From contig JBDHAC010000015.1 of assembly GCA_039588275.1 (NCBI GenBank), positions 1 to 61,986 of the forward strand: DNA of 61,986 nt. The letters are read 5' to 3'. The number at the start of each line of letters is the position of its first letter. Within the stretch, counting starts at the first letter, position 1. The stretch is from Gemmatimonadota bacterium. GTDB lineage: Bacteria; Gemmatimonadota; Gemmatimonadetes; Palauibacterales; Palauibacteraceae. Position numbers: made by a program. Positions 18,001 to 27,000 of the stretch are shown piece by piece.

Positions 18001-21000
18001 GCGAGGCGGCGTGGTGGAACAGGCCGCGTGCATGCATGAGAGTCTCTCCTCTGTTCGGGTCTCGGCTCGTCCCGCGAAGCGATCGCACCGGCCGAGCGAG
18101 GCCTGTGAACGCTCAGTAGAACCACACGACGGTGACGGAGGGATCGCTCGTCTCGAACACGGCGACGCGACCCTGCACCGGGACCTCGACGCTGAGCCCC
18201 GCCAGCGACTCCACGGCTACAGTAGGCTCGGACCCAGGAAACGCGGAGGGACCGGACGGGCCGATCTCTTCCAGGCCGGGACCGCGTGGACCCGCGGTCA
18301 GCACCAGCGCGGCGATCGCGGCCGCAGCCGCGACGGGGACCGGAGCCCACCACCTCCCGCGCCGTGGATCTGGGGAGTCCACGGCGCCACTCCTGCGTCG
18401 GCGACGGGTGGGCAGTCCTCGATCGGCGACCGCCTTCCCCCCGACGGTCGCGCGTCCCTCACGGGCCACGCGGACCGCCTCTTCCTCGCTCATCCGGGGC
18501 TGGAGATGCCCGAGATCCGCCGCTAGCCCCTCCGTTTCGTCGAGAATGCGCGTCGCGAGCGCCTGGCAGGCCATGCAGGTCCGCACGTGCCGGGCGACGA
18601 CGGACTCTCCGTGGCCGGCGAGCGCGGTAGCGGATGCCTCGAGAAACTGCTCGCGGATGTCCGTGCAATTCATCGTGTAGACCCCTTCCGCAGATCCGGG
18701 TCGCGCTCGAGGATCCAGGCTCGAATCCGTCTTCTCGCCTTGAACAAGTGCACCCGCACGGTGCCCGGATTCATGTCCAGCATCTCCGCGACCTCCGCGG
18801 GGGCGAACCCCTGGAGATCGATCAGGTCGAACAGCTCACGCTGCTTCGCCGGCAGCGCCTGTAGGAGGTGGTCGATCCCCTCGATCAGGTCCTCCGCGTG
18901 CAGGCGTCCGAGGACCCGCTCCTCGGTTCCCAGCACGGCCTGGGTGCCCCCGATGGCGCTCCGTCTCCGAGCGCGCCTCCCGCTCCGGACTGCGCGTGGC
19001 TCGCCGCGGCGTTGCGCGTCACCCCGTACAGCCATGTGGTGAAGCGCCCGCGACCCTCCCAGGAGGGGAGGTGGCGGTACAGTCGAACCAGTACCTGCTG
19101 CGTCACGTCCTCGGCCTCATCCGGGTCTCCGACTCGCACCAGTGCCCAGCGGTAGATTCGCCGATAGCAACGGCGGACGAGCGCGTCGAACGCGGCCTCA
19201 TCACCGCGCGCCGCGCGTCGCGCGAGCTCATCGACCGCTTCGTCTCCAGGTCCGAGCCGTCGACTGGCGAGTTCGTGCACCTGCCGTCCTTGGGTTATTC
19301 GCGAGTGAGACTTGCGTGGAGGCCACACCGTTTACCGGTTGGGTATCGGACGTTCCCTGGAGGTGTGATGGGGGAGAGCCCTGCGCAAGGAGGCTCGCAC
19401 GAGGAGCCTGATGTGAGGCGCGAGCTCCTTCGTGCGGGCTTCAGGCCGGGTCGACCGCCCCGGGGCTGGGATCCGGTGGAGTGTCCACGTCGACGCTCCG
19501 GCGGGCCGAGTGCCCTTCATCGCTTTGGTGCCAATACCGCACTTCCGGCTCATCCAGCGCCCAGCAAAGGTAGGCCTGGCGCTCGCCCAGCGTGGTCGGA
19601 AAGTGGACGATGCCTCGTTCCAAGCCGTCCAACGGAACCACGATCCCCCGGCCGGTCAGCTCCGCCTCGATGGCCTCTACGATCTCGCGATCGATGGCCA
19701 CGATCGCCCGACGGTACCGGACGTATTCCTCATGGTCGGGGTGCCCGGCCTTCCGCTCCCCGTGGCCGACCTCGTCACCCCATACGGCTTGCAGTTGCTC
19801 GAGTTTCTGTTCGAGACTGCCTGCTGACCGGCGCATCTCGCGAATCCTCACCAGCGCCGTTCGGATGTGCGGTAGAAGGGCGTTGGCCTCCCCCACCGTG
19901 AAGGCTCGCTCCTTGTCCAAAATCTCTCTCTCCAGCGCGGTGACCGTGGCTCCGTCTTCGAGGTGCCGATACCGTCGCACGCACCCATGCTCGCGCGCGT
20001 TTGGAACGATCACTTAGACCGAGCCTGATCGAAGACGTCACATCGGGATTGGAGGATCGTCAACCCCATAACTCCGGAACCGAGGCATGATGTCCCGGTC
20101 AGAGCTATAATGGCCCGCGTGCATTGGAGACGGCCGCCACCCACACGACCCATGGCGCCGGCTGGGGAAAACGCTCGTAACGTGATTTGCCGTTTTCTGT
20201 TACGGTGCGTTGACGGCCGATGTGCGGGTGCCGCCCTTCGGTGGCGCCGGCTCACCGCATGGAACCTGCCGAGGTCTGTTCGACAAGGACGAGATGTCGA
20301 CCAACCGTTATGGCCGGCCCGTCGTACCTGAAACGCATCGAAAACCCACGCGGCCACCCGCGATGCGGCGGCTTGGCGCGTGGGGCCGCGGTCAGGCATC
20401 CGTACGCCAGGGCGGGACTCTTCGCGACAGCGGGGGACCGCGTCCGACAGTCGCGGCGAGGAGCCCGCCACCCTTATTCGGAGAGACGGTTATGAAACAA
20501 ACGAGGAGAACGTCGCTGGCCGCGACCAGCGCAATCGCGGTCCTCGCCCTCAGTCTCACGTGGGGGTGTGGAGGGGATGCCGGAGAGGCGGAGACGGGCG
20601 AGGTCACCCAGATCGCCGCGCACCCGGGTCAGACGATCTTCGAGCGGAACTGCTTCGCCTGTCACACCATCGGTGAAGGGCTACGCGTGGGTCCCGATCT
20701 CAAGGACATACACCAGCGCCGCGAGCGGGAGTGGCTCGAGCGGTGGGTCGCCGATCCGCTCGGCATGTCCGAGACGGACTCGATCGGACGGGAGATCTTC
20801 GCCGAATTCAACAGCGTCCCCATGGCGCCGAGCTTCTTGTCGGAAGAAGAGATCGGACAGGTCCTGGACTACGTGCAGCTCGTCAGCACGGGTGAGCTGG
20901 TACCCGCCGCGACCGCGGACGAAGGACCAGTGGAGCTCAGCGAAGAGGAGTTTGCGGAGGGACAGGACATCTTCTTCAACCGGTGCGCCGGGTGCCACGG

Positions 21001-24000: not shown

Positions 24001-27000
24001 CCTGATCGTGAGCCATGCCGATGATCCCGACTGGGTGGCTCACGTCAGGGCGGCAGCAGCTTCGGTTCAGTGGAATCACGGGCCCGTCGAGGTCGCGTTT
24101 GTGGACGGCAGTGGACCCATGGAGGAAGCGGTCGACGCCGTCCTGGGCGCCCGGGTTGCGGAACGCCCGGCCGCGGCGGTGATCGTCCCGCTCTCCCCGG
24201 ATCGCGGGAAAGATCTGGAGAGTGCGATCCGGGCCGCCGTGGACGGCCGCCCGCACTCCTCGCCGGCGCTCCGCGTGGGGCGTCGGCTGGACGGGTTCCA
24301 GCAAGTCGGCGTCGGTCCGCTCGCTCGCGCCGTGGAGCGGAGCGCCATGACAGCGCTGGCGGCACTGCTGGAGTCGGGCGCAATCGCGGAGCCGGGCGCC
24401 TCCGGGATCGTATATCGCCTCGCCGGCATCAACGTCACCGCCACACGCGAGGCGAGAGAGACGTTCGCGACGCCCCGCCCCGTCACGGTGATCGGGGAGG
24501 CATCGATCCGCGAGAGGGCGCCCGCCAACCCCGCGGACCTGTTCCGAGATATCCCCGGTCTGGATGTCGAAGGCGTTGGAGCGAGCCAGCGGCGGCCCAT
24601 GATCCGGGGCCTGCGCGGCCAACGCGTGCTTCTCCTCGAGAACGGCATCCGCCTGAACAACTCCCGACGCCGGCTCGACTCGGGAGAGCCCCCGGCGATC
24701 TCGGGCGTCTTTGAGCTGGACAGGATCGAGGTCGTGCGCGGCGCCTCTTCGGTGCTGTACGGCTCGGATGCGATCGGAGGTGTGGTGAACCTCATTCCGC
24801 GGCGGCCCCGCTACCCGCTCGCGGGAGCCGACGTGGGCGGAGCGCTCCACTACCGCTACGGCTCCGTCGGGAAGCAGCACGGCGCCTCCGGCCGGGTCGC
24901 CGGTCACGTGGGGCGGCTGGCATTCCTGGCAGGCGCCAGCTATCGGGAGGCGTCGTCCTACGAAGCTCCCGCGGGGAGCTTCGGCGACCTGACCCTGGTC
25001 AGGGACACCGAGGTCAGAGACACGGGGGTGGAGGACCACAACGTGGCCGGGCGTCTCGAATACCGCTTCTCGCCGGGCCACTCGGCGTTCGCCCGATTCG
25101 AGCGCTATCGGGCGCGGGAAGCCGGATTCGGATTGGTCGATCCCGCCGACCTCGGGTCGGCGGGGGCCAGCGTCCAGATCCGATTCCCCGATCAGAAGTT
25201 CGATCGGGTCGTCCTGGGCTACGAGGGTCTCGACATCCGCCAACCCGTCGCGGATCGGGCGAGCGCCACGGCCTACTGGCAGGACAACGAGCGCGAGTTC
25301 GTCACGAGCGTGTTCGCGCCCTTCGATGTGGCCCAGCCGGACGGGCCGGGGGTTCAGATCGAGAGCGCGAACTTCACCGATATCGGCACGTACGGGTTCC
25401 GACTCGAGGCGGCCAAGCTGGTTGGCGGCCGGCACACCCTCACCTACGGAGTGGAGGTGCACCGCGACCGATCGCTGAACACCGATGCCCGCAGCTCCAC
25501 CGTGACCGGGTTCGGCCCCCCGGCCACTACGACCGACAGTACTCCGGCGGTGCCGAACGCCACCCTGCGGAGTGTTGGAGCGTTCGCGCAAGGAGCCCTC
25601 GCTCTAGGTTCCCTCGCCGAGCTGACCCTGGGGCTGCGGTACCAGGACGTACGGGCGAAGACGATCGACACACCCGGACTGGCCGACCCCTTCCCCGCTG
25701 AGGATGAGGCGGACCGAACGCTGGTCGGGACCGCGAACCTGCTGTACCGGCTGACGGACGCGGTCAACCTGGTCGTATCAGTAGGCCGCGGGTTTCGCTC
25801 TCCCAACCTCATCGAGCGCTTCTTCAGCGGCGCGACTCCCGAGGGGACGGGCGTATGGACCCGGAACCCGCGGCTGGGCGCCGAGACGAGCCTCAACTTC
25901 GATCTCGGCGCAAGGGTTCAGACGGCTTCGCTCTACGTGGAAGGATTCGTGTTCCGCAACTTGCTGAAGGACGGGATCCAGCTCGAGCAGACGGACAGCA
26001 TCGCGGACGGGCTCCCGGTGTTCCAGAACGTCAACGTGTCGAAGATGACGATCACTGGCATCGAGCTGACGCTGGGCGCCCAGTTGGGCAAGGGGCTGTC
26101 GCTCGGGGCGGGGTTCACGCATCTGGCGGGAGACAACCCGGACGATGCGGAAGATCCCGTGCTCGAAGGGTATCGAGATCGGGTGCACGCGCACGTCCGC
26201 TATACGGACTCGCGGGATCGGTATTGGGCGGAGTACGAGGTGCGTCACAACGGGAGCACCGACGATGTGGTCCCCGGTCTGAGTCCCGTCGGGGACCTGA
26301 TTCCATCGTTTACGGTTCATGCCGTAAGGGCCGGCGTGAGGCTGTTGAGCCGGCACCGGCTGGGAGTGGCGATCGAGAACCTGTCGAACAGCCTGTACGC
26401 GGAGCCCACCAACGTGGCCTTCTTCCGACCCGAGCCGAAGCGAGGCCTCACGGTCACTTGGACGGCGGAGTTCTGACCGATGCCGAGGGGCGCCCTACGC
26501 ACCGCCCGAGCAGCGCCGTTGCGCCCGAGGCGACCGTTTGTCCACCGCAGTGGCGGCTGGTAATCTGAGTTTGCGGGGCCGAACGGCTCCGCGCGAGCGA
26601 TTCGATTCGAGAGACACTGAACACCGAATACACGAAGAGACCGATGACTACAGCGACGACTTCCATGTACGAGCAGCTCGTCCCGCCGAGCATGGGCGAG
26701 CCGATCACGATGTCGGATGGCAAGCTTCAGGTGCCCGCGCGGCCGATCATCCCTTTCATCGAGGGAGATGGTACGGGCCCCGACATCTGGGCGGCCTCCA
26801 AGACGGTCTTCGACGCAGCCGTGGAGAAGGCGTATGGCGGTGAGCGCGAGATCGCCTGGTTCGAGGTGTACGCCGGCGAAAAAGCGTACGACATGGTCGG
26901 AAGCTGGCTCCCGGACGACACGCTAACGGCGATCAGCCACCACCTGGTCGCGATCAAGGGACCGCTGACGACCCCCGTAGGTGGCGGTTTCCGCTCCCTG

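Follow-up and report, generated by a model that had tools for sequence, protein, structure and literature searches.

A cytochrome cd1 nitrite reductase gene and its linked haem-type TonB receptor in Gemmatimonadota genomes without haem d1 synthesis

The window, a 61,986-nucleotide stretch of a Gemmatimonadota genome (G000; completeness 85.8%), carries nirS, a porin gene and a TonB-dependent receptor gene side by side. Its NirS is a cd1-type nitrite reductase whose sequence is intact and conserved, in a genome that has lost the genes for haem and haem d1 synthesis. Two copies of the receptor are distinguishable, one tracking haem auxotrophy and the other nirS. We consider it probable, by a modest measure, that the nirS-linked receptor brings ready-made haem d1 into the periplasm for loading onto NirS there. 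The main comparison sets were 61 relatives (receptor versus HemB), 400 or 401 genomes of the phylum and 120 listed NirS homologues, and gene order was read at 25 + 8 nirS loci. The nirS-bearing genomes are all draft or metagenome assemblies, and counts over related genomes are non-independent.

A conserved NirS with two c-type domains

The nirS gene (20492..22444, + strand) encodes a 650-residue predicted lipoprotein with two CxxCH-bearing c-type domains in front of a d1 propeller, which scores 368.6 bits for Cytochrom_D1. The lipoprotein cysteine, Cys26, is at least 90% conserved among 40 aligned homologues. The extra N-terminal c domain (20624..20878, +; PF00034, residues 45–129) has CxxCH at 54–58 and Met111, the canonical NirS haem c domain (20948..21172, +; PF13442) has CAGCH at 165–169 and Met206, and the propeller (21281..22426, +) holds H300, H445, H487, R274, R316, R490 and W608. 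The best PDB match is P. aeruginosa NirS (E 2e-154); identity is 44% to P. mandelii NirS and 51.5% to Thermus NirS. H169, M206, H300, H445 and H487 align with P. aeruginosa H51, M88, H182, H327 and H369, which bears out the description in an earlier note on this DNA of a two-haem-c NirS with all catalytic histidines. R274, R316, R490 and W608 are the counterparts of the d1 carboxylate-binding Arg156, Arg198 and Arg372 and the locking Trp498; in P. aeruginosa NirS, three arginines bind the acetate and propionate groups of d1 and W498 locks the cofactor (10.1101/2020.02.12.945543).

These features are near-invariant. The CaGCHg haem c motif with its Met ligand, as worded in the legend of Fig. 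S1 of PMC10999283, appears as CAGCHG (165–170) with M206 in 120/120 homologues. The LHD and PHpGpG motifs that set NirS apart from NirN and NirF are found as FLHDGG (443–448) and PHPGRG (486–491), with H300 also present. In the d1 pocket, H300, R274 and R316 are conserved in all 120 homologues, H445, H487 and R490 in 119 and W608 in 118. Two CxxCH motifs occur in 118 of the 120 listed homologues, as expected from the more than 100 full-length two-haem-c relatives counted before, and the haem ligands of the extra domain are kept in 118–120. Differences from a congener at first, second and third codon positions number 53/27/183 for nirS, 30/19/101 for the porin and 105/67/288 for the receptor. 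The nirS motifs are thus intact and under purifying selection, and conservation and codon-position pattern together rule out a relic gene.

The protein resembles NirS of P. aeruginosa and Paracoccus pantotrophus (PDB 1NIR, 1BL9, 1AOF) in its c domain, eight-bladed d1 propeller, haem ligands, catalytic His and d1-binding Arg and Trp, but differs in the extra N-terminal c domain and the lipoprotein anchor. Two c domains ahead of the d1 domain are also found in Chloroflexi C1-C2-NirS, a design called unique to that phylum (Schwartz et al. 2022, PMC8756737). Here the two-c NirS occurs under Gemmatimonadota, Actinomycetota and Myxococcota labels, and the likeness to the Chloroflexi protein is one of domain layout. 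The extra domain is likely a built-in electron donor, and electrons would probably pass from it through the canonical c domain to d1.

Downstream of nirS lies an AlgE-like outer-membrane porin gene (22580..23791, +; PF13372, 111.5 bits against a cut-off of 25.2), whose product is likely a putative anion channel through which nitrite would enter. The porin was previously said to follow nirS; it does so in the window and adjoins nirS in 14/19 Gemmatimonadota loci, though not in every one. Porin homologues occur in 42/401 phylum genomes, all 9 nirS genomes among them. A tyrosine-less, eNOR-like haem-copper enzyme encoded on contig C60 is the likely means of NO removal. A promoter scan of the locus returned no sigma-70 site, terminators were at chance level, and no canonical FNR-type box was found upstream of nirS in 8 loci.

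Absence of haem and haem d1 synthesis

Orthologue and profile searches uphold the claim that G000 is without nirF, nirN, nirDLGH, NirJ and tetrapyrrole synthesis. The genome has a single Cytochrom_D1 match, no PF17805 match and no orthologue of P. mandelii NirF, N, D, L, G, H, E or J, and its best TIGR04051 score is 61 bits against a cut-off of 515. Compared with P. aeruginosa and P. pantotrophus, it has no nirM, C, F, D, L, G, H, J, E or N, the neighbours of nirS being the porin and the receptor instead. HemB, HemC and HemE were not found in G000, nor was an orthologue of any gene in the nine-gene hemACDBLENYH operon of the related genome G064. The hemD-hemB site is empty in mid-contig (C20), with a gap of 115 bp between rpmB and an epimerase gene; the hem loss is therefore real, and an assembly gap is excluded as its source. 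CcmC and CcmF, which serve c-haem maturation, are present. As read from its genes, G000 is unable to build any tetrapyrrole.

The deficit extends through the NirS clade. PF17805 is absent from all 34 nirS genomes, as had been proposed, and NirF from 25/25, with G227, G254 and G310 outside the latter search. The earlier note put HemB loss at 14 of 20 genomes; HemB is indeed missing in most, the corrected count being 19/25. Its caution that PF17805 responds only in archaeal controls did not hold, since the profile matches P. mandelii NirD/L/G/H and 44/401 phylum genomes, which also excludes blindness to bacterial genes.

Could an unrecognised pathway nevertheless convert an imported precursor, for example sirohaem, into d1? 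The assemblies are incomplete, and one nirS genome, G084, has an AhbD/NirJ-like radical SAM protein at 140 bits, both of which leave some room for such a route. We consider it very improbable, given that uroporphyrinogen synthesis is lacking in G000, that sirohaem decarboxylase, NirJ, NirF and NirN were absent from every genome tested, and that no conserved enzyme gene lies near nirS in the 25 + 8 loci. The last result also excludes a hidden d1 enzyme adjoining nirS.

A nirS-linked clade of haem-type receptors

The third gene (23903..26476, +; start possibly 23957) encodes a TonB-dependent receptor with plug and barrel whose best matches are haem receptors. Its best profile is TIGR01785, as noted earlier, at 209.5 bits and under the curated cut-off of 316.85, below which both the nirS-linked and the housekeeping receptor groups fall. 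PhuR is the best fold match of the receptor model (E 5e-68; next 2e-52). The receptor shares with PhuR, ChuA and ShuA the FRxP and NPxL loop motifs; it differs from them in its sub-cut-off TIGR01785 score, its tie to nirS, a fused chelatase-fold domain and the lack of a conserved His. Since no His is conserved in either group (30 nirS-linked and 49 other rows), the ligand is not readable from sequence. Plasmid sequences searched with the receptor yielded matches of only 25–35%.

A 51% identical paralogue lies on contig C56 of G000; no family member was found in G041, where the earlier note had placed a 52% identical one. Across 61 relatives, the receptor family occurs in 16 and HemB is absent in 16, with an overlap of 15. 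This anti-correlation and the PhuR fold match indicate that the family is likely a haem importer. Describing the window gene as a paralogue of the lineage's haem receptor was thus correct, and it also belongs to a separate nirS-linked clade. In a tree of plug and barrel, a 30-row clade (SH-aLRT 98) comprises 14/14 nirS-adjacent receptors together with 15 fused homologues and a single short homologue, and none of the 52 other family rows; a smaller tree splits 5 nirS-linked from 21 other rows with support of 100/99. Diagnostic residues separate the 30 nirS-linked rows from the 49 others: position 257 is R in 23/30 versus Q in 46/49, 260 is S/R in 30/30 versus F in 49/49, 428 is F/W in 30/30 versus Y in 48/49, and 652 is W in 30/30 versus Q in 43/49. 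The plug (24467..24784, +; PF07715) carries the clade-specific R257, S260 and A281.

Fusion to a periplasmic domain (residues ~30–160; 23990..24382, +), which the earlier note does not mention, is usual in this clade. By predicted fold and profile relatedness the domain is of the CbiX/CbiK-like class II chelatase type. Its AF2 model (pLDDT 87.9) aligned best with class II chelatases in VIA-align (top 5 rows, Z 11.2–10.0; best rmsd 3.0 over 124 aligned residues), and 17/17 tested top matches of a profile search were PF01903 proteins (E 1e-24). Other searches were less telling: Pfam gave no match for the domain as it occurs in the window, Foldseek gave nothing under 1e-3, a profile search of the PDB left it unplaced (6M2A only at E 1.8), and an Atlas search gave a single lead at 0.78. 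Only a W and a G are invariant in 22 rows, and the metal-binding histidines of chelatases are not conserved. P. gingivalis IhtA-IhtB (FetB) and D. vulgaris periplasmic CbiK likewise place a haem-binding, extracytoplasmic class II chelatase fold next to a TonB receptor, but the window domain is one degenerate half-domain with a C-terminal helix, fused to the receptor and without metal histidines. Stand-alone CbiX-like proteins occur in ~70/401 phylum genomes, some adjoining non-nirS receptors, so that fusion to such a domain is a sign of tetrapyrrole handling rather than of d1.

Linkage to nirS is strong. Among 400 genomes drawn from the phylum, 5/9 nirS genomes carried the fused receptor (three of the five from one genus), each time less than 4 kb from nirS, and 0/391 others did; with unfused copies included, the receptor adjoins nirS in 7/9. 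Among fused homologues, 8/25 apparently share a genome with a top NirS homologue, against 0/94 short ones. The earlier count of receptors beside nirS (3 of 9) was too low: 12/19 decidable Gemmatimonadota genomes have one. The other seven (G013, G027, G062, G063, G064, G069, G310) carry receptors of the housekeeping type only, and no family member was found in nirS genomes G052 and G080. HemB does not separate the two situations, being present in 3/12 genomes with a linked receptor and 1/7 without. The HemB- and HemE-positive genomes G079, G084 and G405 retain the copy linked to nirS, which is the only family member found in G084 and G405. Both copies are present in HemB-lacking G000, G001, G078, G107, G188, G227, G254 and G458.

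The receptor might share its regulation with nirS so as to supply iron or haem during nitrite or NO stress, or carry other cargo, so that the linkage says nothing of the NirS cofactor and NirS may be only opportunistically active. Rrf2-family regulators adjoin nirS in G188, G227, G254 and L024, and FetB/IhtB, for which a role in removing iron from haem has been proposed, is among the folds nearest to the fused domain. We judge this unlikely: loss of the conserved histidines makes dechelation improbable, the linkage persists in six different gene orders and extends across the Gemmatimonadota NirS tree, and the NirS active site is strongly conserved.

Source of the NirS cofactor

We return to haem d1 import. 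Finished haem d1 or dihydro-d1, shed by other denitrifiers, would be taken up by the nirS-linked receptor, and the fused domain would keep the ring bound on the periplasmic side for handover to apo-NirS. d1-type haem readily leaves NirS (10.1101/2020.02.12.945543), and d1 insertion takes place in the periplasm (PMC13168839), so this route would need no inner-membrane transporter. Ordinary haem would enter through the housekeeping copy and feed Ccm, which would attach the two c haems. The Actinomycetota-type nirS loci, 13 of which have no receptor (neighbours rib, infC, rplT, spoU and pheST), do not count against the idea, because cells without an outer membrane have no place for porin and receptor; d1 could there pass straight onto the surface lipoprotein. 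The logic is that of BtuB, through which non-producers scavenge finished cobalamin. PqqU reportedly serves non-producers of PQQ in a similar way, the PQQ apo-enzyme being periplasmic; the cargo here would be haem d1.

Thermus thermophilus offers a different precedent. Its NirS (nirSJM; clade 1j, Pold et al. 2024, PMC10999283) is the closest studied sequence, with C339, C362, C570, C582 and H593 in common, but it has a single c domain, a separate NirM and an AhbD-like radical SAM partner in place of a receptor, and its host makes haem. Strain HB27d respires nitrite after gaining just the 7-kb nic cluster (PMC5748679), which holds no nirF, nirN or nirDLGH; PF17805 is absent from that plasmid and from the Thermus control genome. 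The radical-SAM partner mentioned earlier is there, yet scores 351 bits for AhbD haem b synthase and 164 for NirJ.

The window NirS clade, like Thermus NirS, might accordingly run on protohaem or a derivative, the second receptor serving just to bring in more haem b once the enzyme is induced. The Thermus findings, the Q483-to-His change and Cys pairs common to both proteins, and the retention of nirS with the housekeeping receptor alone in seven genomes and with none in the Actinomycetota-type loci all speak for this. We find it doubtful nonetheless, as all three carboxylate-binding arginines are retained, plug and loop residues are changed in the linked clade, the linked receptor persists in haem-making G079, G084 and G405, and d1 carbonyls give low NO and high nitrite affinity relative to haem b (10.1101/2020.02.12.945543). 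T. thermophilus nirS mutants reportedly still grow on nitrite, so that the activity of Thermus NirS in pure culture may not be established.

Of the scavenged cofactor proposed earlier, the absence of d1 synthesis in every genome tested and a dedicated receptor clade stand; d1 as cargo is inferred, a third of the genomes have no linked receptor, and the Thermus precedent weighs against it. A broader reading, which we hold in even balance, is that haem d1 is a shared good: this widespread Gemmatimonadota/Actinomycetota NirS clade would have dropped the entire d1 pathway to live on the cofactor of canonical denitrifiers, and the Gemmatimonadota receptor with its chelatase-fold catch domain would have evolved from a housekeeping haem importer. 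The literature searched held no report of haem d1 uptake, and the clade-wise nirBEFJNT presence table of Pold et al. may already record clades without d1 genes.

Denitrification is routinely estimated from nirS counts. Should a large clade rely on cofactor from nearby cells, its activity would vary with the composition of the community, and the same reliance may also explain why such organisms do not denitrify or grow by themselves. An importer of d1 would be the first for this kind of isobacteriochlorin, and the two paralogues, 51% identical and told apart by a few diagnostic residues, offer a direct handle on specificity. Should protohaem be the cofactor, a cd1 enzyme working without d1 would still be surprising.

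An intact NirS without tetrapyrrole synthesis

The nirS gene (20492-22444), the AlgE-like porin (22580-23791) and the haem-type TonB receptor (23903-26476), all on the forward strand, were confirmed where the earlier note had placed them, and in each most differences to a congener fall at third codon positions. The 650-aa NirS product carries a lipoprotein-type Cys26, the two c-type domains previously described and a d1 propeller. It aligns with P. aeruginosa NirS (E 2e-154) at a constant offset of 118, with H169, M206, H300, H445 and H487 corresponding to H51, M88, H182, H327 and H369; the histidines H300, H445 and H487 are thus kept, as had been claimed. 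Among the best 120 of 7205 homologues, 118-120 have these ligands, 119-120 have the arginines that bind side chains of d1, and 118 have the tryptophan that locks the cofactor (roles as in 10.1101/2020.02.12.945543).

The study genome, 85.8% complete, holds one Cytochrom_D1 gene. A profile search of it detected no PF17805, the sirohaem decarboxylase marker, none of the P. mandelii d1 genes has an orthologue in it, and it yielded no NirJ-grade radical SAM protein; its single TP-methylase match begins like RsmI, a label assigned by eye. The earlier conclusion that haem d1 synthesis is missing therefore stands, as does the broader one for tetrapyrroles: HemB, HemC and HemE were not found in the genome, orthologues of the nine-gene hem operon of a relative (G064) numbered 0 of 9, and HemL, HemN and HemY queries returned generic matches at 25-33% only. 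In a closed genome of the same family (G017), rpmB and an epimerase gene enclose hemD-hemB; here they are separated by a 115-bp gap (contig C20, 16583-16698), a clean deletion at the syntenic site. As this empty site lies mid-contig on a 56-kb contig, between its syntenic flanks, the loss of hem genes is real.

The genome also encodes CcmC, CcmF and several haem-copper oxidases and has 50 ORFs with CxxCH motifs, so that, with haem synthesis absent, the cell must import haem. A large multihaem cytochrome cluster (C9, 999-20543), in a host unable to make haem, has 8, 4, 9, 21, 11, 19, 4, 4 and 4 CxxCH motifs per ORF. One oxidase (C60, 7564-9105) lacks the active-site tyrosine and shares 80% identity with the one adjoining nirS at locus L022; we presume it to be eNOR-like. 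Around it (C60, 5453-10418) lie a CuA subunit, SCO, a haem o synthase-like gene and a divergent Rrf2 regulator. PMC11214002 gives a missing active-site tyrosine as a mark of NO reductases. A NorC-like dihaem cytochrome precedes a very divergent haem-copper subunit I (C16, 59763-61810), and a propeller lipoprotein is paired with a YVTN-propeller/three-CxxCH protein (C53, 7314-10759; hydrazine-synthase-like by eye). NosZ and NarG had no match in the genome.

Distribution of the NirS clade

A genome scan gave 25 nirS loci from 11 Gemmatimonadota and 13 Actinomycetota-type genomes, one locus being a second contig. With G052 added, NirF and PF17805 were each found in 0 of 25 nirS genomes, and HemB was missing from 19. 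In a phylum draw of 400 genomes (395 at least 90% complete), window-type NirS occurred in 9 and PF17805 in 44, none of them among the 9; NirS was the only strong Cytochrom_D1 match in all five of the nine that were checked. After duplicate removal, scan and draw together gave sirohaem decarboxylase in 0 of 34 nirS genomes. The Actinomycetota copies stand alone between spoU and pheST; all 13 have a Cys after the signal stretch, and HemB is absent from 12 of the 13 Actinomycetota-type genomes. Locus L023, labelled Saprospiraceae, shows the Actinomycetota gene order, and its NirS hardly differs from that of L024; the record is likely mislabelled or misbinned. In G107, nirS is in two frames (L200, 6852-8751) within an otherwise intact porin-receptor-nirS operon, reflecting error or decay.

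NirS without d1 genes is likely already on record, since Pold et al. 2024 (PMC10999283) separate NirS clades partly by presence of nirBEFJNT. Other reports describe a Chloroflexi NirS of two-c design (Schwartz et al. 2022, PMC8756737), nirN/J/F accompanying anammox nirS (PMC6423088) and, for cultured Gemmatimonadota, nirK/nirS and a similarity to 'heme D1' in antiSMASH (PMC11651109).

The nirS-linked receptor and its fused domain

The receptor's predicted structure has PhuR as best fold match. Its family occurs in 16 of 61 relatives and HemB is absent from 16, with 15 genomes common to both, a tally in which kin are not independent and whose pattern eight genera follow. The study genome and G001 each have two copies, 51% identical; G002, of the same genus and without nirS, has one. 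The stretch C56, 7587-10735 holds the housekeeping copy and, after it, a conserved membrane protein of ~240 aa without a Pfam family, a candidate for haem handling at the inner membrane; in relatives a two-component system often lies ahead of them.

In a quick LG+G4 tree of plug and barrel, all 14 nirS-adjacent receptors group with 15 fused homologues and one short homologue (SH-aLRT 98); of 25 fused homologues found, 15 entered the tree, seven were represented by their genome loci and three were left out. The clade contains none of 52 other family members, many of which are short metagenome loci where nirS could sit beyond the flank. The split recurred in a slower 26-row tree (support 100/99). 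Against the rest of the family, the clade differs at a few plug and loop positions, gaining an Arg and losing a Phe and a Tyr, changes that would favour a ring of more anionic and polar character.

Receptor and nirS adjoin in 12 of 21 Gemmatimonadota nirS genomes; in seven they do not, and in two the contigs end too early. Six gene orders occur: nirS-porin-receptor, nirS-porin with convergent receptor, porin-receptor-nirS, porin-receptor with convergent nirS, nirS-receptor, and nirS with convergent receptor. Three genomes having HemB and HemE retain the nirS-linked receptor. The porin is less tightly tied to nirS: the two are neighbours at 14 of the 19 loci examined, and porin homologues occur in 42 of 401 phylum genomes. 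In G206 the porin frame (L221, 1348-2634) opens with an apparent N-terminal NirK fragment, recognised by eye, hinting that the protein may be a nitrite channel.

Receptor residues 30-160 form a confidently predicted fold. Class II chelatases take the top five places in the structural comparison (periplasmic CbiK of D. vulgaris, Z 11.2; FetB of P. gingivalis, 11.0; SirB, 10.9; CbiK, 10.6; DR2241, 10.0), the first unrelated match following at Z 9.4. A profile of this domain retrieves CbiX proteins that are exported (all 17 that were tested belong to PF01903), and stand-alone exported CbiX-like proteins adjoin other receptors of the family. The fused form comprises the chelatase first half and last helix, and the histidines are absent. 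By analogy with its chelatase-fold relatives and with FetB/IhtB, which according to PMC12094164 binds haem and is partnered with a TonB receptor, the domain likely binds a tetrapyrrole, though the domain does not tell d1 from another ring. The fusion occurred in 5 of 9 nirS genomes versus 0 of 391 others in the phylum draw, with ten candidates scored per genome and only the fused form sought. The unpublished genome G176 is one row in this and in the PF17805 tally, and none of the conclusions depends on it.

Proposed haem d1 import and the Thermus precedent

On balance, we lean towards the receptor beside nirS importing haem d1. The main rival is that window-type NirS runs on protohaem, as Thermus NirS might. 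Thermus NirS, the closest studied enzyme, is without d1 genes and has an AhbD-like partner; its nirS mutants reportedly still grow on nitrite, and if so the precedent is weaker. PMC5748679 and PMC7694296 attribute to the Thermus enzyme a role in the nitrite respiration of pure cultures. On a Thermus plasmid, the gene called nirJ (L002, 13621-14748) is a TIGR04053 member, closer to AhbD haem b synthase than to NirJ.

Our literature search, with subscription journals largely outside its coverage, returned no published report of d1 uptake. Completion and insertion of d1 are periplasmic, according to PMC13168839, and NirS holds d1 non-covalently (10.1101/2020.02.12.945543); an outer-membrane receptor alone would for these reasons suffice for d1 import. 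Receptor-only import would thus fit an operon without an ABC transporter, and cells without an outer membrane would require no partner genes. NirS itself belongs to an ordinary enzyme family; the unusual part is its supply chain.
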